The notes under the pieces: generated by a model
Databases searched by the model: none
Told to the model about the DNA's origin: nothing
The model's input: the letters and a program-made list of their open reading frames with translations, nothing else
Shown: positions 3,371-52,901 of the stretch, piece by piece
Position numbering within the stretch: the stretch's first letter is position 1
How the letters are laid out: each line of letters opens with the position of its first letter
Translations under genes and position numbers: made by a program
Virus record (IMG/VR): IMGVR_UViG_3300021400_000063
Length of the DNA: 64,000 bases
Source: a virus
Lineage: Duplodnaviria > Caudoviricetes
Reading direction: 5' to 3' (one strand)

Positions 3371-5161
3371 ATGGGTAAATATATTTTGAATTCCATGTAT
3401 TTGAAAGCTAGATGGAGAAAAGCTGATAAAATTAATCCTTTCTCGGATTTCAATATGGAAAAAATATCAGACGATTGTTTGATACAAATTATAAAAGATG
3501 ATGAAACTAATACATCAGAAATTCAAATTATAGAAAGACCAACGATTGAATATTATACAGTTATAGATGAACAAAATTGTAAACCTTACAATCAAATGTA
3601 TATTGATCGTGATTTGGTTGAACCACATACAGTTGAATATTCAAAACGTGAAGGAGATATTTGTAAATATCTAGGAATTTACGATGAATACAAACGTTTA
3701 AAAGCTGAAGCTAATAAATATCATACAGATCCTGAAATGGCTAAAATGGATAAGATGAACTTTAAGAAATTTATGAATAATAAAGTTTATATGAGTCCAC
3801 TTATCTATGAGGCAGATTTGGCTATTGAAGATTATTATAAAACTGCTTTTATGAAAAAACATGGTAGTAAACTTCCTCGTGTTCTCAATATAAGTTATTA
3901 TGATATCGAAACCTTTATCTATCGTTTTAAAGAGCAGGTAGATCAGAATAATCCATTGGCTCCAATTTCAATTATCACATATTACAATAATAAACAGAAT
4001 CATTTCTATGCACTTTGTTTATTCTTAGATGAAATTAGAGAAGTTCAGCAAGAAGTTCAGAAAGATATCGATGGATACATTAATGAATATATTCGTGAAG
4101 ATTTTGAAAAGATTCCTGATTGTAAAATCAATATTAAATTCTTTGAATCTGAACGAACTATGTTACAGGCATTCCACCAATTGATTCAACAGGATAAACC
4201 AGACTTTGCAATGGCTTGGAACAGTAATTATGATAATAAATACATGTTGGGTCGTGAAAAGATTCTTGGTTTGGATATTACAAATCTCTGGTGTCATCCT
4301 GATGTTCCAGAACAGTATAGACAATTCTCATTCAATGAAGATCCTCAGAGAAAAGAGAAAGTTTATAATGCTGGTGGAGATTCTGGAAATAAGAAACACT
4401 TCTCGAGATTGTGGGATTGGATTGTTGCTCCAGGTTATACAACTTACATAGACCAAATGTCGTTGTATAGTAATTTGCGTAAACGAAGTATTGAACGAAG
4501 CTACAAATTGGATGCTATAGCTGAAAAAGAAATTCATGCTAATAAAGTAGATCTTTCTGATTTTGGATATAACATTCGTAATGCTATCGTTAAAGATTTT
4601 AAAATATTCTTAAAATACTCTATGCGTGATACTGCATTACTTCATTTACTTGAAGAACGTAACCACGATTTGATCACTTATCTATCTCTTGCAGATAATA
4701 CAGATACAAAGAATGGTGTAAACGTTAGTATTATTATTAAGAATGCATTCTACAATAGATTCTTGGATAATAATCAAGTTATGGGTAACACTATTGATTA
4801 TGGTGTTAAAGAATCAATCGATGGTGCTTTAGTACAAGATCCATTATTATTGGAAGTTCCTCCAGTAGAAATTAATGGGCATAAAACTAAAATATTCCGA
4901 AATGTTGTAGATTGGGATGCCAAATCACTTTATCCATCTCTAATGTGTCAACATCAAATCGGTCGAGAAAATCAGAGATATAGAATTCTCAATATTACAG
5001 ATCAGTATGGTAATTTCATAATGACTGGCCAGGATTATAATCAATATCTTCAAACTAAAGATGTTAGTATTATTGATCTTTGTCATGAACTATACGATTT
5101 ACCAAATATCGAAGATATTCTTAGCGATGTTGAAAACCAATTAAAACGAGTTTGTGCTTAA
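3371..5161 (+). CDS. Split family-B DNA polymerase subunit (3'-5' exonuclease plus motif A)
   Basis: ExoI YDIETF, ExoII WNSNYD, ExoIII YSMRD, YKLDAIAEKE, motif A DWDAKSLYPS; motifs B and C absent before the stop. Confidence 0.85.
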   Translation: MGKYILNSMYLKARWRKADKINPFSDFNMEKISDDCLIQIIKDDETNTSEIQIIERPTIEYYTVIDEQNCKPYNQMYIDRDLVEPHTVEYSKREGDICKYLGIYDEYKRLKAEANKYHTDPEMAKMDKMNFKKFMNNKVYMSPLIYEADLAIEDYYKTAFMKKHGSKLPRVLNISYYDIETFIYRFKEQVDQNNPLAPISIITYYNNKQNHFYALCLFLDEIREVQQEVQKDIDGYINEYIREDFEKIPDCKINIKFFESERTMLQAFHQLIQQDKPDFAMAWNSNYDNKYMLGREKILGLDITNLWCHPDVPEQYRQFSFNEDPQRKEKVYNAGGDSGNKKHFSRLWDWIVAPGYTTYIDQMSLYSNLRKRSIERSYKLDAIAEKEIHANKVDLSDFGYNIRNAIVKDFKIFLKYSMRDTALLHLLEERNHDLITYLSLADNTDTKNGVNVSIIIKNAFYNRFLDNNQVMGNTIDYGVKESIDGALVQDPLLLEVPPVEINGHKTKIFRNVVDWDAKSLYPSLMCQHQIGRENQRYRILNITDQYGNFIMTGQDYNQYLQTKDVSIIDLCHELYDLPNIEDILSDVENQLKRVCA

Positions 5162-5165
5162 TTAT

Positions 5166-5196
5166 AAAAGTGTGGATATTTATCCACACTTTTTTT
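5166..5196 (+). terminator. Intrinsic terminator
   Basis: aaaagtgtggata/tatccacactttt followed by T-run. Confidence 0.8.
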
Positions 5197-5223
5197 ATAT
5201 ATTATATTTTTGAAGAGGTATAT

Positions 5224-5394
5224 ATGGAAGAAATAAAAATTGATCCGAAAACTTGTTACACTAGTTATGCGGAACAAGAAATAGAGGATGATAACCCTCC
5301 AATTCCTGAAAAACTTTACAATAAAATAAAATCTAAAGGCTATGAGTCTCTTAGAGAATATGCTTTTTATGAGCATGGTGTAATAATGCCTTAG
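5224..5394 (+). CDS. Small hypothetical protein (start revised to MEEIKIDPK)
   Basis: GAGG SD before ATG 5224; terminator at 5401-5430. Confidence 0.65.
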   Translation: MEEIKIDPKTCYTSYAEQEIEDDNPPIPEKLYNKIKSKGYESLREYAFYEHGVIMP

Positions 5395-5428
5395 TTTTTA
5401 AAATAGGATCAATAGCGATCCTATTTTT

Positions 5429-5460
5429 TTGCAAATGGTTTATGATGCTTGATATATTAT
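5429..5460 (+). promoter_or_regulatory. Early-type promoter TTGCAA-N18-TATATTAT
   Basis: Same motif and spacing at 5732, 8043 and 52262; resembles phiKZ/AR9 early TATATTA(C/T). Confidence 0.65.
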
Positions 5461-5466
5461 AATTAT

Positions 5467-5733
5467 GGATAAAAGATAGAGAGGGGTGTTCATGCACCCC
5501 TCTCTAAATATAGCTTTTACCAAGGAGGTGAAAAACTATGGAAGGTAAACAATTGTTTACATACCATTATAGTGTAAACTATAATGGTTTTCCAGTCACT
5601 AAGACCAAATTAGTGACAAGACAGGAATTTATTTCCGTTACAGGAATAGACCCTGTCACAAACAAATGTATATTTTAATTGTTAATATACATTTATTAAA
5701 TATAGAAGAGGGATTAATCTCTCTTCTTTTTTT
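5467..5733 (+). ncRNA. Highly structured transcript (seven consecutive stem-loops plus terminator), possibly dual-function
   Basis: Stems at 5477-5506, 5511-5538, 5545-5560, 5563-5588, 5595-5617, 5620-5657, 5664-5694; terminator 5704-5733. Confidence 0.5.
5538..5678 (+). CDS. 46-aa small ORF MEGKQLFTYHYSVNYNGFPVTKTKLVTRQEFISVTGIDPVTNKCIF
   Basis: AAGGAGGTG SD 7 nt upstream of the ATG; lies within the hairpin array. Confidence 0.5.
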   Translation: MEGKQLFTYHYSVNYNGFPVTKTKLVTRQEFISVTGIDPVTNKCIF

Positions 5734-5763
5734 GTAAAAGGTTTATATTATTTGATATATTAT
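5732..5763 (+). promoter_or_regulatory. Early-type promoter TTGTAA-N18-TATATTAT
   Basis: Conserved motif and spacing, directly after a terminator. Confidence 0.65.
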
Positions 5764-5842
5764 AATAATGAATAAAGGAAGTTAAAAATGTTAAATAAGT
5801 AAAAAGAATAAAACATTTCTCCTTTATTCAAGGAGAAAAATT

Positions 5843-6034
5843 ATGAATGAAGATATTATGAAGAAGTTTAAGGATGCTATGAATTCCTTAAACGATGAAG
5901 ATATGGAGATTGTATCAACCAATCTCCATAAAAACAATATGAGAATTGAAAGAGATATTCGATTTTCATATTTAACAAGAGAATCATCTCAACCAACTAA
6001 TAAAAGAAGTTATACTTCTATGAGAGTTGGCTGA
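5843..6034 (+). CDS. Small early hypothetical protein
   Basis: AAGGAG SD, own promoter and terminator (6039-6073). Confidence 0.7.
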   Translation: MNEDIMKKFKDAMNSLNDEDMEIVSTNLHKNNMRIERDIRFSYLTRESSQPTNKRSYTSMRVG

Positions 6035-6131
6035 GATTAAGAGATAGGAAATTAAGTTTCCTATCTTTTTTTTAATTATATATTTTCTCCTTAACAAGAA
6101 AGTGTACATATTCTTTGGAGGATTAAAAATA

Positions 6132-7745
6132 ATGGCTAAGTATTTACAAACAATTAGTGTAACTGAAGATGAGGTTAATAAAGCAAGGTTAGAACCTTTT
6201 GAAGAAAGAAATAAAAATATTGTTGTAGAATTTGATAAGATTTTTACAAATGAAAATTTTAATGTTTACAATAAGTTTGTTACAGGTATTGGTAAGAAAC
6301 GCGTTTATTCTTCCATGGCTACAGATATATGTAATGATAACAACATGATTCTTAATCAATGTGACCCACAATTGAAAATGAGAATTCTTTATTCTTATTT
6401 CACTATTAAGAAAGCAATCGATCTTAAGAAATTTGTTAAGGTTGATGATGAAAGTGCTTTACAACAGTATGGTGCTGAAGCACACAGAGACTTTGGTAAA
6501 TATGAAAACTTTATCAACTTCCTCATTTCAACTTTATTTACAGTTGATTTTATTGAAGCTATTAAATCTTATGTTGAAGAACATTATGAAGTTTCTGTAG
6601 ATGAAAAAGAATCTGCTAATTATGCTGAAGCTACAACATTTACAAATGAACATTTGAAACTTATCTATACAGCATCTTATATGACTAAATTTGCAATCCC
6701 ATTATGTACACATTATATCTTTATCAACTCTGATCTCAATATCGATGTATTCAATTTCATGTACACTATTTTTGATGCTATCTTTAAGATTATCGTTGTT
6801 GGTACAAATTGTTCTAATTTGATGAATAAACTCTATCAATATTGTGATAGAATTGTTTCTCGAACAGAATCTTCTAATAAACGTATTTGGGATAGTTTCC
6901 CTATGTTTAATAAAACTCGCGAATCAATTGTTGACGAATTGGTTATCAAAATTGTAACAACAATTATTCCTAAAGCCGATCTTAAGAAATCAGTTATTAA
7001 ACTTATTGCAGTTGTAGCTCGCATGAGTATTATGGAATTCCAGATCCGCGCAAACAATCCTTACGATTGTTATAGAATTAATGATAGTGATAATTCATCT
7101 GATGATGAAGATAAATTGTCAGAAAATGATATCTTCGATATGTTCTATCGTAATACTGATGAATCTATTGTTATTCTTAATAGATATGCTAATGATGATG
7201 CTATTGAATGTATCTGTAGAAGAAATAATGTTTACATTTCTCAGGAAGAATTTGAATTCTATAAAAAGAATTATCAGTTGCATTATTTCACAGTAAATAT
7301 TGTATCTACTGTATTTGCTAGATTCTTCTCTGGTGTAGATAATGTAAGATCTTGTACATTTGATCAGTTTGTTAAATTGGTAATCGTATTAATTCATAAG
7401 ATGAAAGATCTTGGTATTGAATATCTTCCACATTTCGTAACAGCAACACGTGCAAGCTATTCATTTACTAGAGCTCCATCTGTAAGTGTATTAAAACAAC
7501 TTAAGAATGATTATGATTACAATCAATTGATTGAAATCAAATATCGAAATATCAGAAGTGTATTTGAAATTAAAACAAGTACGTCTGATGAAAGAAATCC
7601 TATCAAAGATATGATTGTAAGCCTTATTCATAATGATTACATTTATAATGATTTTGGTGGAAAACACAATGGTGAAAAGATTCCTGTTGATGAATCCGCT
7701 ATTGTAAAAGATGTAATCAAAGTTTACAAACAAATGTTGATTTAG
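6132..7745 (+). CDS. Probable nvRNAP promoter-specificity (sigma-like) subunit, phiKZ gp68/AR9 gp226-like
   Basis: Start revised to MAKYLQ (GGAGG SD); size and the segment TFTNEHLKLIYTASYMTKFAIPLCTHYI recall this family; nvRNAP subunits present in the window; not confirmed by search. Confidence 0.5.
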   Translation: MAKYLQTISVTEDEVNKARLEPFEERNKNIVVEFDKIFTNENFNVYNKFVTGIGKKRVYSSMATDICNDNNMILNQCDPQLKMRILYSYFTIKKAIDLKKFVKVDDESALQQYGAEAHRDFGKYENFINFLISTLFTVDFIEAIKSYVEEHYEVSVDEKESANYAEATTFTNEHLKLIYTASYMTKFAIPLCTHYIFINSDLNIDVFNFMYTIFDAIFKIIVVGTNCSNLMNKLYQYCDRIVSRTESSNKRIWDSFPMFNKTRESIVDELVIKIVTTIIPKADLKKSVIKLIAVVARMSIMEFQIRANNPYDCYRINDSDNSSDDEDKLSENDIFDMFYRNTDESIVILNRYANDDAIECICRRNNVYISQEEFEFYKKNYQLHYFTVNIVSTVFARFFSGVDNVRSCTFDQFVKLVIVLIHKMKDLGIEYLPHFVTATRASYSFTRAPSVSVLKQLKNDYDYNQLIEIKYRNIRSVFEIKTSTSDERNPIKDMIVSLIHNDYIYNDFGGKHNGEKIPVDESAIVKDVIKVYKQMLI

Positions 7746-8074: not shown

Positions 8075-8143
8075 AACAATGAGTGTGGATGACTATAAAC
8101 TCTTAATAAAAATAAATTTAATTATAGTCAAGGGATAAGTTAT

Positions 8144-8530
8144 ATGAAAAAAGAACAGATTCTTAAAATGGCTGCTAAAACAGCTGAAGATTTTAATGAA
8201 GGAGATTTCTTCATTGGTTGCACTATTGAAGAAATTCTTCCTAATAAGAACAAGACTACACTTGTATGTGTAGACTGTTCTTGGTTAAAACCAGGTCAAC
8301 AAGCAATTGTTGATCGTAATGACCTCGATGAAATTGAAGAGAAAAATTTCTCTTCGATAAAAGTAGACACTGACTTTAATGAGTTAGTGTTTACAAAATG
8401 GTGTGATATGGTAGATGAAGATGGTGATACCCACCATTGTAAAATTGAAAGTTTTGCGGAGGTGTCCGATAATATCTATCAACCTGTGGAAACAGATGAG
8501 ATTGATTGGGTAGTTTATATCGAAATCTAA
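8144..8530 (+). CDS. Acidic early hypothetical protein
   Basis: 128-aa ORF downstream of an early-type promoter. Confidence 0.75.
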   Translation: MKKEQILKMAAKTAEDFNEGDFFIGCTIEEILPNKNKTTLVCVDCSWLKPGQQAIVDRNDLDEIEEKNFSSIKVDTDFNELVFTKWCDMVDEDGDTHHCKIESFAEVSDNIYQPVETDEIDWVVYIEI

Positions 8531-8646
8531 ATCATCTCTCTTTTTAAAACAGAAAATTCGAAAGGGTTTTCTGTACCAGATTGCTCTGGTTTCTTTTTTT
8601 CATTTATATATTTTAACTATGAAACTAATAAGGAGGTATTCTAATT

Positions 8647-47399: not shown

Positions 47400-48134
47400 A
47401 TGGCTAAATTAACTAATGTAACACCAGATTTACCAGCTACAACTAATAAAATGGTTAATATCATTTCTAAAGAAACCTCAAATGGAACTGTACAAGTTTG
47501 TATGGAAGATGCTCAATATTATTATCTTCCATTTGACAAATCACCATTAGATTTATCAGATTCTAAAATTCGTGAAAAATTTATTAAATCTGTTGAAAAT
47601 AGAGTTAGAAGATCTAAACTTTATAAAGCTTATGTAGCATATCTCAAAGTAGATTGTAAGTTAGATCGATGTTCTATTTTTGGAAATATTAAATCTGAAA
47701 AAGGTGATAAAACTAAAATAGAAATGCATCATGGACCAATTTTTACATTGTATGATTATGTTTCTATTGTACTTGAAAAACATTTGCGAGAAAACGCTAA
47801 TGATATAAACACATTTGATATTGCAGCTGAAGTATTAGATTTACATAGACGAAAACTGGTACAAACTGTAATGTTATCGGAGACTGCTCATAAATCCATG
47901 GATAATCCTAAAATAGCACCATTCTTGTCACTTGATATGACTTTTGGTGATCTAGTAGGTTTTATTAAAGAATATGGGCAATATTTCTCTCCAAAAAATA
48001 GATCTGATCTTAAGAATTATTTTATTCATTATCAGACTAATTTGGAAAATAATAAATTAAATGTATTTAAACCTGTATTCACTCAATACAATATTAAATA
48101 CGTAACTTCTAAAGCGGAGATACCGAATATATGA
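47400..48134 (+). CDS. HNH/His-Me-finger-like protein, paralog 2 (late operon)
   Basis: C...IEMHHGPIFTLYDYV...MLSETAHKSMD. Confidence 0.55.
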   Translation: MAKLTNVTPDLPATTNKMVNIISKETSNGTVQVCMEDAQYYYLPFDKSPLDLSDSKIREKFIKSVENRVRRSKLYKAYVAYLKVDCKLDRCSIFGNIKSEKGDKTKIEMHHGPIFTLYDYVSIVLEKHLRENANDINTFDIAAEVLDLHRRKLVQTVMLSETAHKSMDNPKIAPFLSLDMTFGDLVGFIKEYGQYFSPKNRSDLKNYFIHYQTNLENNKLNVFKPVFTQYNIKYVTSKAEIPNI

Positions 48135-51106
48135 GTTTTGAGAACGTCTATCGCTCCGAAACCGGAGCCGCAGAAATTGAAAAGATAGCAGACTTTATTG
48201 GAAGTTTAGTTATCAAAAATAAATATGAAGCTAATAGAAAAGAAACTTCGGAATCTATAGCAAATTATTATGCATATTATGGTGCATATACTAAAACTGA
48301 TCATTTTAGTGATTATGATAAAGATGATCGAAGAAAATATAAAGAATATGTACATGTTTATTTATCTTCAGATAAATCTAAATCATATGTATATAATGAA
48401 TTAGTTTTAGATATGTTGACCGAATCTTCTTTTAAAGATTTAGAAGATAATAAAGATAAAGAACTTTATAAAGATTATTTAACAGCTTTACGAATATCTA
48501 GAGTTTATTTGTATGAAGAACGAAATGAATATTATAGACAGTTCATGGGAGTTCCAAATTCGAATGCTGAAATTGTTTATTTAATAAATATTGATAAGGG
48601 TGAAATGGGTTATAGTTTAATTGAAGATTATTCTACGCCTCCTGATCCATATACTCAATATTATTATTACAATGAAGAAGATAAATTATTTTATCCTCTT
48701 AATTTTTATTTAACAACAGGTTCATGGGCTCCAGCTTTAGCAATTCATGATAAACTTTATACAATTAATTTGGTTAAAGCTCATGATATTAATAGTACAG
48801 ATTATCCGTTGACATATTCGTATTATATACTTCAAGGTCATATTGATGAAGTAATTGAAAAATATCCTAATTATAATTATTTAAAATTTATTGGTGAATC
48901 TTATACACCATTTAAATTGAGAATGATGGGAAATTATGATATCATTAAATATAAAAAGAATATTTTATCTAATACAGAATTGACTTATTTTTTCAAAGCA
49001 TATAATAAAGCTAAAACTCAAGTTTTACTCGATTATATAGATGGATTTGATAGTAAACAACCATTGTATAATATTCTTATGATTGAAAATCTTTTGTATT
49101 ATACGATTATCAATTATTCAAATTCGTATATTGAAAAATATTCTTTAGGTATTTATACTGAAAAGAATCTTAATGATATTCTTAATTCACATGGATATTC
49201 TTCTTTAACTAAAATTAGTGATATAAACTTAAAAGAACGTGTTGTTAAAAATCTAAATGATTTGATTGCTAATAAAGGAAATAACTACGTTCTTAATCTT
49301 ATTCTTGAAAAAATTCTTGAAGATCCTAATGTACAATTAAAACGTTATTATCTTGAAAAGAAATATAGAACTGATGATGATGCTTCTATAAGTATTGATA
49401 CATCTAGAGGTTTGGAAAATTCTATAGATTTAGTATTTAGAGAAGTTTCTGCTACAGATGTAAATACTAAAACATCTGAAGATGTTATTCATGATTATGA
49501 TATTTTTGTTAATGAAGATAAATTATGGGGCGGCTGGTCTGAAGACGATACCAATGATTCAAAAGCTAGTAAAAAAGAAGTTCTTAAAAAAGAATTACTT
49601 GCATTGAACTTTAACTCAATCTTAACACGCTATATCACATTAACAAGAACTGTAGATATTTTGGAATCACAACGTCAAATTAGAGATTTACTTTATTTGA
49701 TGTTAAAATTCTTTGATCAAAATGATTCTCCAGAATTTTTTGAAATTAAAACGGCTTTTAATTCTAATATATCTGTTCCACCAGCCGCATTATTTGGTGC
49801 AATGTGTTGGTTACAACAAATGAAGAATTATTCAAATCCTGATGTCATTATTAAGGATAATTGTGTTATAAATTCTACAGCAGTTTTTAGACAACTTGGA
49901 AGATTTGCTCTAGAAAAAACTTCATTTGAGAATAAAGTTATTGTAGACGGTCGAGTTGTAACACAATATGATATTTCTCCAGAAATTGCAACTTGGAAAG
50001 TTGTAGATTTTATTAAAGAAAATCAAGAAGATTTTAAAGATTTCTTTGTTGGAGTTGATGGTGAAAGGATTGAAACTGTAAGGATTAAAGATATTGTATC
50101 ATTGGATAAAATTCCAGCTGATGGATATAAACATCTCGATGTAGATGATGAAGATCTTTCAGATTATATGACTATATACAGATTCTATTCTAATGGACAA
50201 CAGCTTGGTGAATTCACAAGTGATACTACATTTGAAGAATTGGTAGATGACTATAAAAATCAATATCCTAATCTTCTAAAACGCATTACTTGGAAATTAA
50301 GAAATTCTTATGATTTTAGAGAATTCCAAGCCTGGACTTATATTCTTAATCAATCTAGAACTAATAATAGTATTTATTTCATTTTTAGAAATTGTACCAC
50401 ATTTACTGAATATTTAACTAGTTTAGAAGCTGATAAACTTAAAGTTTATATACTTGACAAATTAGGAAATAATCCTACTAATGTAGAAATAACAAAGTTA
50501 CAAAATGAAATTATCGATGTATTTAAGCAATGGGTAAACAATTCGTTTTCAAAATTAGTATATGAAGCTGAAAATTCAGATACATCTGGTTCATCTTCAG
50601 ATTATATCAATGATATGATCATTTTGTTTAATGAATTCTTATCGGTATTCTCAGAACTTTATTCCATCGATTATCGTTATACATTTGGTGATAAATCTTA
50701 TGAAGGTTTGGATATTCAATTATTCTATAATCCGATTAATGTTTGGCAAACGTATAACCCGGTTGATAAAATTGAATTACGCGAATATATTAAATCTTCT
50801 ATGAATGTAGATTTAGATAGTGATAAATTTGAATTATTATATACATACTATTTAAATGCTTTCAATATTATTTACGATAATATAAATAATGATATGAAGA
50901 TTGAAAATTCAACAATTCAATATATAGATGACCAATTTAAATATGATCCAATATTAACACAATGTACTTGTAAAATATTAGATTTATTTGAAATGAGACA
51001 TCAATTATCTATAAATATTAAATCGTCTGTTACCGATTCGATAAGTTTATCGGATGGTAAATTAACGATTGAAACTTCTACAGGAGAAACTAAAAATTAT
51101 GCGTAA
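48131..51106 (+). CDS. Probable baseplate/virion structural protein
   Basis: 991 aa; YEERNEYYRQFMGVP and NLNDLIANKG recall jumbo-phage baseplate proteins; late operon. Confidence 0.55.
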   Translation: MSFENVYRSETGAAEIEKIADFIGSLVIKNKYEANRKETSESIANYYAYYGAYTKTDHFSDYDKDDRRKYKEYVHVYLSSDKSKSYVYNELVLDMLTESSFKDLEDNKDKELYKDYLTALRISRVYLYEERNEYYRQFMGVPNSNAEIVYLINIDKGEMGYSLIEDYSTPPDPYTQYYYYNEEDKLFYPLNFYLTTGSWAPALAIHDKLYTINLVKAHDINSTDYPLTYSYYILQGHIDEVIEKYPNYNYLKFIGESYTPFKLRMMGNYDIIKYKKNILSNTELTYFFKAYNKAKTQVLLDYIDGFDSKQPLYNILMIENLLYYTIINYSNSYIEKYSLGIYTEKNLNDILNSHGYSSLTKISDINLKERVVKNLNDLIANKGNNYVLNLILEKILEDPNVQLKRYYLEKKYRTDDDASISIDTSRGLENSIDLVFREVSATDVNTKTSEDVIHDYDIFVNEDKLWGGWSEDDTNDSKASKKEVLKKELLALNFNSILTRYITLTRTVDILESQRQIRDLLYLMLKFFDQNDSPEFFEIKTAFNSNISVPPAALFGAMCWLQQMKNYSNPDVIIKDNCVINSTAVFRQLGRFALEKTSFENKVIVDGRVVTQYDISPEIATWKVVDFIKENQEDFKDFFVGVDGERIETVRIKDIVSLDKIPADGYKHLDVDDEDLSDYMTIYRFYSNGQQLGEFTSDTTFEELVDDYKNQYPNLLKRITWKLRNSYDFREFQAWTYILNQSRTNNSIYFIFRNCTTFTEYLTSLEADKLKVYILDKLGNNPTNVEITKLQNEIIDVFKQWVNNSFSKLVYEAENSDTSGSSSDYINDMIILFNEFLSVFSELYSIDYRYTFGDKSYEGLDIQLFYNPINVWQTYNPVDKIELREYIKSSMNVDLDSDKFELLYTYYLNAFNIIYDNINNDMKIENSTIQYIDDQFKYDPILTQCTCKILDLFEMRHQLSINIKSSVTDSISLSDGKLTIETSTGETKNYA

Positions 51107-52379: not shown

Positions 52380-52901
52380 ATGGCAAAAGTATCTTATGTT
52401 ATTTCAAAGAATTCTTCAGGAAATGGAAAATCAAATTTCCATTTCGATGGTAATGCTGGATCTGGAAAATGGTTCAGTAAGATCTTTAACAATGGAAAAG
52501 AAGAACATTCTTCCGATCCAAATGAGATCACTGATCTTCTTTCTAAGCTTGTAGTAGATGGAGACTATTCCATCTCTAGAAACTCAGAAACTCGTATTGA
52601 GTTCGAAGGATCTACTGAAGAAATTAAGGAATTTGCAACCTGGTCAATTAACCAGGTAAAGGCTGAAGCTGGAACCCTTAAGGAACTTGCAGCATTTTTG
52701 AAAGAATACTGCAGAGCAATCGTAGATATGTTCAAAGGTATCTTCGGATACACTGAGCATGTTGAAGAAATTCAGTCAGAACGTGATAAGTTCGAAGCTG
52801 AAAATTTAAGACTCACAAAGGAGATGGATGATCTTCGTGAGAGCTTAAAGAAAACTACAGCAGCTAAAAAAGGAAATGCTACTGATTCTAAAAATCAGTA
52901 A
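52380..52901 (+). CDS. Early hypothetical protein with C-terminal coiled coil
   Basis: Own promoter, SD and terminator (52922-52959). Confidence 0.8.
   Translation: MAKVSYVISKNSSGNGKSNFHFDGNAGSGKWFSKIFNNGKEEHSSDPNEITDLLSKLVVDGDYSISRNSETRIEFEGSTEEIKEFATWSINQVKAEAGTLKELAAFLKEYCRAIVDMFKGIFGYTEHVEEIQSERDKFEAENLRLTKEMDDLRESLKKTTAAKKGNATDSKNQ

Follow-up and report, generated by a model that had tools for sequence, protein, structure and literature searches.

Dual-function RNAs such as RNAIII/hld, SgrS/SgrT and SR1/SR1P are short, structured molecules that encode a peptide of a few dozen residues; coding and regulation occupy largely separate parts of them, and their base-pairing targets are known. 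The element analyzed here, nucleotides 5467-5733 on the plus strand of a 64-kb stretch of DNA from a virus of the Caudoviricetes (IMG/VR record IMGVR_UViG_3300021400_000063; the whole stretch is called the window below), is likewise short, structured and peptide-coding, with the difference that its structure and coding overlap codon by codon. It is a cassette made up of a predicted early promoter (ATATATTAT-N6-G), a 70-nucleotide (nt) leader, a 46-codon open reading frame (ORF), a stop-codon hairpin and a terminator. Judged from alignments of related loci, its message is shown to be selected for a chain of hairpins independently of the protein.

Type I toxin-antitoxin systems such as hok/sok share with the cassette a small ORF, a start region that is paired in the messenger RNA (mRNA) and, possibly, an antisense RNA. 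The peptide of the cassette differs in being hydrophilic, without a membrane segment and with a predicted beta-beta-alpha fold; furthermore, the hok/sok antisense RNA is constitutive, whereas the putative antisense RNA of the window would span the whole gene and be made late. The PeSL cassettes of T4-type phages, which Arbiol et al. are said to have described in 2010, reportedly consist of novel small early ORFs between repeated promoter/stem-loop modules in shifting neighborhoods. In that case the repeated modules are central, whereas in the window cassette it is the body of the gene that is conserved, structured and present in several copies.

The early transcription units of the jumbo phage AR9 (PMC5312081) have the same ATATATTAT core, six-base spacer and G start, and among them, too, are small early genes that lack a known function and end in terminators of their own. 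Both phages carry pieces of a multisubunit RNA polymerase (RNAP), a split family-B DNA polymerase and an NAD-dependent ligase. The two differ in that the AAAT upstream of the core in the AR9 consensus is not matched here, and the start given for the window is predicted from sequence alone. The words “hairpin” and “stem-loop” do not occur in the AR9 paper (PMC5312081), which makes no mention of hairpin-tiled early coding regions.

The cow-rumen-4 motif (RF02948) resembles the leader of the cassette in its GA-rich/CU-rich hairpin, its CUCUAAAUAUA linker and its AAGGAGG hairpin, which follow in the same order with much shared sequence, and in its ruminant gut habitat. The differences are a score below threshold for the window leader and a shorter second hairpin; in addition, cow-rumen-4 is curated as a free-standing RNA, whereas the window element forms the 5' leader of a gene for a protein and follows a phage early promoter. 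Similarly, the Firmicutes 5' stabilizers cited in PMC3997798 (the aprE stem-loop, the ermC stall site and the SP82 polypurine) combine a stem-loop with a polypurine run resembling a Shine-Dalgarno (SD) sequence in the first ~40 nt, followed by a strong ribosome-binding site, as the cassette does. These stabilizers act at the 5' end only, whereas the window structure spans the whole coding sequence and the stop codon, and its leader is near-invariant.

RNA structure overlapping coding sequence, 5' stabilizers and phage early cassettes are already known kinds, and the closest curated object spans the first 57 nt only. Literature searches returned no description of the protein family or of hyper-structured or hairpin-tiled early genes in jumbo phages.

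Hairpins along the message

The 267-nt unit 5467-5733 has a minimum free energy of -100 kcal/mol, compared with a mean of -48.6 (standard deviation 4.6) for dinucleotide shuffles, none of which folded as well (z -11.15; 0 of 200). Its coding region was compared with 150 synonymous recodings that kept the peptide and drew their codons from the phage's own usage, and again none was as good (z -5.0). A 267-nt sliding scan of the window placed the lowest GC-corrected residual at this region (z -5.2). The inverted repeats listed in an earlier note on this DNA were all recovered at their positions, and the check that it had suggested, folding against shuffled controls, came out clearly on the side of structure with both kinds of control.

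About 29% of the bases are unpaired in a chain of eight local hairpins, here called H1 to H8, and the stems draw on codons that this phage seldom uses (GTC, GTG, TCC and AAC). H1 (5477-5506) is a perfect 12-bp stem (5477-5488/5495-5506) that reaches -24.7 kcal/mol on its own (z -6.9); it lies 10 nt from the predicted 5' end, its 5' arm is rich in purines, its 3' arm is rich in C and U, and its loop varies. H2 (5509-5540; -8.2 kcal/mol, z -3.2) contains the ribosome-binding site. The SD at 5522-5530 has AAGGA in the loop and GGUG in the stem, and the AUG at 5538-5540 pairs with UAU at 5509-5511. Within the coding region, the palindrome H3 (5545-5560) and the 11-bp stem H4 (5563-5588), which has a GUAA loop and overlies the codons for YHYSVNYNG, together contribute -18.3 kcal/mol (z -5.8). 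They are followed by the 8-bp stem H5 (5595-5617; codons PVTKTKLVT; -9.9 kcal/mol, z -6.4) and by the composite GACAGG/CCUGUC hairpin H6 (5620-5657; codons RQEFISVTGIDPV; -14.6 kcal/mol, z -4.3).

The stop-codon hairpin H7 (5661-5697; -7.7 kcal/mol, z -2.4) has an 11-14-bp stem, with 14-nt arms that are 93% complementary. It pairs the last codons (NKCIF and the stop at 5676-5678) with the 3' untranslated region, and its loop carries the family-invariant TAATTGTT. The intrinsic terminator H8 (5704-5733; -12.5 kcal/mol, z -3.1) consists of a 10-bp stem (5704-5727) with four G-C pairs and a T run.

Selection on the hairpins across relatives

The cassette was extracted from 19 loci, 16 of them distinct, and the 16 sequences were aligned with a pairing consensus taken from individual folds; figures from this alignment describe related sequences and a consensus derived from their own folds. 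The same series of hairpins (leader, ribosome-binding site, three or four in the coding region, stop codon and terminator) is present in 19 of 19 loci. At 16 of the 19, no recoding matched the native coding fold (z -2.7 to -5.2); one recoding was as good in L027 (z -3.0), and L013 was weaker (z -2.1). Five distant homologs (L042-L046), at 40-50% identity, all gave recoding z-scores between -2.3 and -5.2.

In the alignment, 83.7% of the cells are paired, compared with 37-50% when partners are slid by one to three columns; H2 reaches 95.8% and H4, in which C-G and U-G alternate, 89.8%. Twenty pairs have changed on both sides, and the covariation score was reached by none of 500 shuffles. The best covariation support comes from H5, where five of nine pairs are compensated (U-A/C-G 9:5, C-G/G-C 6:6, G-C/A-U 9:4) and the swaps are accompanied by T/S, K/R and V/L replacements in the protein (PVTKTKLVT versus PVSRYKLLT). 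The locus is an unusually clean case, in a DNA phage, of overlapping constraints, in that these amino acid replacements move with their base-pair partners. As a side observation, the innermost H1 pair (5489/5494, columns 23/29 of alignment A2) is U-G in 6 sequences, C-A in ~8 and U-A in 1. U-G and protonated C-A wobble pairs are isosteric, and so this closing pair may be a covariation that standard counts miss, or a lineage effect.

Other hairpins were replaced as a whole. For instance, L013 has ATTTTTAT/ATAAAAAT in place of the YSVNY stem, and relatives carry GATCAAT/ATTGATC or AACTG/CAGTT where the window has GACAGG/CCTGTC, so that the H6 hairpin is kept in a shifted register. H3 is particular to the window copy, and relatives carry a different small hairpin instead. 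The H8 terminator stem is compensated in L001, and a subfamily with NPNN at the C-terminus of its protein pairs its own stop codon in a perfect 14-bp stem, around the same TAATTGTTA. Where the protein diverged, the hairpins were rebuilt from new sequence and not lost; the stems, too, are under selection. The earlier note had raised the prospect of homologs that keep the peptide and lose the stems; the homologs keep both.

The 46-residue protein

The 46-codon frame (5538-5678, plus strand) belongs to a conserved family with a predicted beta-hairpin, helix and short strand. Its homologs form 21 clusters at 59-98% identity, and a profile search added 12 distant representatives, of which 11 have 43-73 residues and one (P0028) is a 655-residue repeat protein. 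The protein alignment has 14 invariant columns. The median pairwise ratio of nonsynonymous to synonymous substitution rates (dN/dS) is 0.24 over 112 pairs, at a dS of ~1 where synonymous sites are near saturation, and column entropy for codon positions 1, 2 and 3 is 0.51, 0.47 and 0.84. An SD and an ATG are conserved at all loci, and the reading frame is kept in relatives down to 30-40% identity. On these comparisons the ORF is a genuine gene with purifying selection on its peptide. AlphaFold, supplied with the family alignment, predicts a beta-hairpin at residues 7-26, a helix at 28-35 and a short strand, with a mean predicted local distance difference test score (pLDDT) of 91.1; the peptide has no hydrophobic stretch, and the predicted beta-beta-alpha fold is soluble.

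The opposite view, that the transcript is a purely non-coding RNA and the frame fortuitous, could appeal to the shortness of the frame and to the lack of a match to the protein in Pfam and PHROGs. We find it scarcely credible in the face of the low dN/dS at saturated synonymous sites, the three-base periodicity of the variation, the conserved start signals and frame, and the confident fold prediction.

A sequence profile search of the PDB with the 46-residue protein gave a chance match only, and Foldseek against the PDB together with a wide VIA-align search gave no convincing fold match (best Z 3.0). The phage uracil-DNA-glycosylase inhibitor p56 was considered as a fold relative and set aside, its Z of 2.5 being at noise level. 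In the ESM Atlas the sequence is present without a usable neighbor. In P0028, eight separate stretches match family-profile residues 27-43 (LTRxEFIxxTGIDPVT); these repeats might hint at the binding target of the segment or be low-complexity noise. As a multi-copy, highly conserved early protein, the family is a target worth testing under every reading of the RNA.

The leader and the cow-rumen-4 motif

From promoter to AUG, the leader is near-identical in 16 close sequences, with a mean column entropy of 0.12, compared with 1.21 in the H1 loop; the stem of H1 either stays constant or changes by compensation. The leader is common to paralogs whose proteins are only 54-57% identical. The distant L042, L043, L044 and L046 have wholly different H1 stems that are still paired (AAGAAGGGG, AAGGAAGGGTG, GAGAGGTGTGTG and TAGGGAGAGTGG), and distant homologs retain the purine-rich 5' arm and the SD-presenting hairpin.

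A segment of the leader (5476-5532, plus strand) that comprises H1, an UAAAUAUA linker and a hairpin that bears AAGGAGG at the loop resembles Rfam family RF02948, cow-rumen-4. It scores 31.8 bits (E 0.0013) over model positions 1-64, below the gathering score of 48.5; copies in a related 276-kb genome score 33.2, 28.9 and 25.2, and L013 scores 34.8, all likewise below 48.5. All three cow-rumen-4 elements align, and more than 95% of the cells in both leader helices are paired across the 16 sequences. We read the leader as a relative of cow-rumen-4 and, by the curated threshold, not as a member. When viral contigs were searched with a leader pattern, eight of nine matches were true, and a member of this ORF family lay downstream of each, with no true match placed before a different ORF or lacking one; the match L033 was discarded as a chance match. 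A pattern built from the cow-rumen-4 consensus had no matches in the viral contigs, and a literature search found no paper on cow-rumen-4. An orphan Rfam motif thereby gains a biological home, in that relatives of cow-rumen-4 serve as 5' leaders of early mini-genes in AR9-like jumbo phages of the ruminant gut.

The leader is also the ground on which a dual-function RNA could be argued, in which the folded RNA or its leader, supplied from several copies at the start of infection, acts as a decoy or sponge and ties up a host protein that binds RNA, associates with the ribosome or takes part in defense. Such a role would fit a leader conserved far above second codon positions and common to divergent paralogs, its resemblance to a recurrent metagenomic motif that stands alone as an RNA in Rfam, the multi-copy state of the gene, and the likeness, by eye, of the CU-rich arm of H1 to the anti-SD tail of 16S rRNA. 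We nevertheless consider it quite unlikely. The coding hairpins vary in sequence and register among relatives and so present no fixed binding surface; sequence conservation is confined to the leader, while the coding stems drift by compensation; and the invariable position of true leader matches ahead of this ORF family fits a role in cis.

The predicted early promoter and the phage

The predicted early promoter (5449-5467, plus strand) is of the AR9 virion-RNAP type, with ATATATTAT at 5452-5460, six further bases and a predicted start at G5467. In AR9, the injected virion polymerase reads early promoters whose consensus is AAATATATATTAT-(6N)-G+1 (PMC5312081); in the window the ATATATTAT core, the N6 spacer and G5467 agree with it, and the four bases upstream of the core disagree. 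The core is conserved at all family loci, with TATATTATAATTATGGATAAAAG near-invariant across the 19, whereas the -35 region is variable. The same early motif precedes the neighboring small genes at 5198, 5756 and 8067.

The idea of an early-type transcription unit, put forward in the earlier note, is thus consistent with the AR9 early consensus. The TTGCAA-N18-TATATT(AT) promoter that it had described is present as such, but its TTGCAA (5429-5434) is not conserved in relatives. Because TATATTATAATTATGGATAAAAG is conserved and TTGCAA is not, a phage-polymerase promoter fits better than a sigma-70 promoter.

The GC content of the window is ~28%. The ORF at 3371-5161 encodes a fragment of a family-B DNA polymerase, namely the exonuclease and part of the catalytic domain (phrog_3011), the gene at 6132-7745 is a piece of a multisubunit phage RNAP (phrog_25005), and a gene for an NAD-dependent ligase also lies inside the window. 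This predicted gene content matches that of jumbo phage AR9, and we call the phage AR9-like. The polymerase ORF ends after motif A (DWDAKSLYPS), which means that the remainder of the catalytic domain has to be encoded elsewhere, as with gp132 and gp152 of AR9. A viral contig of 276 kb, estimated to be 99% complete, encodes a polymerase protein 98% identical to that of the window, and relatives are present in sequencing runs from bovine and sheep gut. A DNA search of a phage collection with positions 5150-6100 gave no matches.

Strand preference and a possible antisense RNA

The reverse strand of the unit folds nearly as well as the forward strand (z -11.45). The plus strand is the more stable one in 16 of the 19 loci, by a mean of only 3.5 kcal/mol, and the ratio of G-U to A-C oppositions is 142:69 in stems defined on the plus strand and 56:81 in stems defined on the minus strand, so that the outcome follows the defining strand.

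Such a pattern could arise at the level of DNA, with cruciforms or single-strand hairpins serving recombination, replication or packaging, or with template-switch correction of quasi-palindromes and no function in RNA. In line with this, the stems are mostly perfect Watson-Crick helices, the strands are equivalent in stability and mismatch spectrum, and the cassette has repeated terminator-promoter joints and differing neighborhoods, as expected of recombination-prone modules. We rate this explanation as improbable, given the plus-strand advantage in most loci. RNA is also favored because the hairpins coincide with RNA landmarks, namely the 5' end, the SD and AUG, the stop codon and the terminator, and because they persist through saturating synonymous divergence; rebuilding of hairpins across a dS of ~1 is not expected of a mutational by-product.

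Both strands could, alternatively, matter as RNA. A possible late antisense promoter of AR9 type lies on the minus strand at 5671-5683 (AACA-N6-TA/G, with N7 spacing here: AACAATTAAAATA). The AR9 late consensus is AACA-(6N)-TA/G, and AR9 produces late antisense RNAs from such promoters (PMC5312081). Read on the minus strand, H1 scores as an intrinsic terminator whose tail is UCUUUUAUCC (5476-5467). The locus could accordingly be a sense/antisense timing switch, in which the early mRNA is met by a late antisense RNA of ~210 nt that runs from the AACA promoter in the H7 loop to the complement of H1. The stem-loops would then be kept since complementary loops of the two RNAs kiss, as in plasmid copy-control antisense systems, and the mini-protein would be shut off fast and completely, which is compatible with hairpins that also protect the message.

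We regard this switch as a possible, if doubtful, explanation. The near-equal folding of both strands and the AR9 precedent speak for it, and the minus-strand AACA-N6-T[AG] is found at the homologous site in 15 of 19 loci. Moreover, TAATTGTT is invariant in 16 of 16 sequences, including the subfamily whose C-terminal codons changed, preserving pairing, and a minus-strand terminator formed by the H1 complement and UCUUUUAUCC would account for the conserved GGATAAAAGA. On the other hand, the spacing is N7 instead of N6 in the window copy, as it is in L001, and the motif is missing in L027. In the relative genome AACA-N6-T[AG] occurs upstream of genes 29 times in sense and 22 times in antisense, about the background rate, a slight enrichment that does not establish it as the late promoter of this phage. 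By eye, no such motif is seen in the hyper-structured stretches 5843-6034 and 8144-8530, and the loops, mostly of 4-5 nt, are short for kissing.

Proposed role of the hairpin chain

The account that we favor, at about even confidence, is that of a self-contained early gene cassette in which the hairpin chain serves as nuclease armor and as a control on the start of translation. The injected virion RNAP would transcribe from G5467 as far as the 5704-5733 terminator and so make a message of ~267 nt, and the chain would shield this short, AU-rich message, transcribed from a single incoming genome and probably without coupled ribosomes. The threat would come from host nucleases specific for single strands (RNase Y/E type) and from a 5'-exonuclease (RNase J1 type), the choice of nucleases being a guess. 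H1, which has 12 bp and a polypurine arm and lies 10 nt from the 5' end, would be a 5' stabilizer; H2, by exposing part of the SD in its loop and pairing the AUG, would gate initiation; and H7 and H8 would shield the 3' end. The gene may subsequently be silenced by a late antisense transcript running from the H7 loop to the H1 complement. As for the protein, our guess is that its target is a host factor, bound early in infection.

There is precedent in Bacillus for 5' stem-loops and polypurine sequences as 5' stabilizers, one of them from phage SP82 (Hambraeus 2002 and Hue 1995, as cited in PMC3997798). Among the options offered in the earlier note, a tightly controlled small-protein mRNA comes nearest to these findings. 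If the hairpins are nuclease armor, the cassette is a ready design by which short mRNAs could be made stable in AT-rich Gram-positive systems.

Several observations weigh against this account. The near-invariance of 70 leader bases exceeds what a stabilizer needs and points to a sequence-specific partner. In the paralog L019, the coding region is indistinguishable from its recodings (z -0.8). Three genes with early promoters show no excess of structure (5224-5394, z -1.8; 46197, z -0.9; 34454, z +1.2), so that armor is not a general rule for early genes. Finally, the two strands fold equally, and selection of the plus-strand RNA itself is not proved by the data.

A broader reading, which we think unlikely, is that the cassette represents an undescribed class of double-coded mini-genes of jumbo phages. 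A cassette of ~270 nt would give rise to a hairpin-chain early RNA and an equally folded late antisense RNA, the leader would be recognized specifically by a factor of the host or the phage, and RNA and protein would both be effectors of host take-over. If the hairpins serve a sense/antisense switch or a decoy, and not as armor, they would add a new layer to early regulation in jumbo phages.

Copies, neighborhoods and other structured genes

The cassette is shown to be multi-copy and to stand in differing neighborhoods. Four intact copies lie in the 276-kb relative, at 32.2, 193.0, 238.4 and 259.7 kb, and three of the four occupy five of its six most structured 200-nt windows; copy A, at 193 kb, is the counterpart of the window copy (z -3.7 in that genome). 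In the same genome (G002), the second most structured 200-nt window (33.8-34.0 kb, z -4.26) lies ~1.7 kb from copy C, and no family member was detected there. In the window and in L011, the cassette lies between the polymerase fragment and the RNAP subunit; in L008 and L009 it follows a YunG-like gene, and in L013, L027, L029 and L042 it is placed beside unrelated minus-strand genes. A terminator-promoter joint of ~50 nt flanks the cassette on both sides (5424-5466 and 5727-5766), the two copies being ~80% alike by eye. Metagenome contigs from runs X5 and X6 end or switch partner within the leader (5453-5534), where depth is several-fold above the flanks; breaks and raised depth are consistent with a multi-copy repeat that disrupts assemblies.

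The earlier note had also suggested a cruciform-rich origin near the polymerase gene, and this variant of a DNA-level function finds no footing here. The four copies are dispersed, so that the location is not unique, cumulative GC skew rises monotonically through the region without a turn, and there are no iterons, the direct repeats at the locus amounting to one 8-mer pair only.

Comparable structure is present in other genes of the window, contrary to the earlier impression that this hairpin density was particular to the cassette. The early gene 5843-6034 has a transcript z of -9.0 and 8144-8530 one of -7.9, and 52380-52901 is comparably structured. Coding z-scores of -4.1, -5.1, -6.1 and -5.7 were obtained among 5770-6080, 8080-8600, 52380-52901 and the start of 48131-51106, most of them small genes with the early promoter type of the cassette. 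A synonymous-recoding z of -4 or lower was found for four small genes with the same promoter type, compared with one of 38 other genes. The excess of structure in small early genes has a Mann-Whitney p of 0.03. Some early messages of this phage may share hyper-structure as a class trait.

Two contigs come from RNA libraries. One, of 4452 nt, spans 5150-5485 and is continuous with the polymerase gene, so that DNA or read-through is possible; the other, of 194 nt, belongs to a type-B paralog. Both lack a visible start, end and strand, and neither is counted as expression.

A further promoter-like motif and terminators

A second promoter-like motif, TTTATATATTTT, occurs in the window at 6079, 8605, 9433, 13472, 54876 and 57380. 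It sits 30-50 nt upstream of larger genes (the RNAP subunit, the ligase and others) and is distinct from the TATATTATAAT class.

Upstream of the cassette, the preceding 56-codon early gene ends in a terminator (5400-5433, plus strand), a perfect inverted repeat (5400-5410/5417-5427) with an 11-bp stem and a T run. A two-hairpin terminator follows the 128-codon gene at 8549-8600 (ACAGAAAA...TTTTCTGT, then ACCAGATTGCTCTGGT), and a nearly identical module closes copies of the type-B mini-gene elsewhere (L002 1740-1790, L016 and L017). Terminators thus seem to be shuffled as units.

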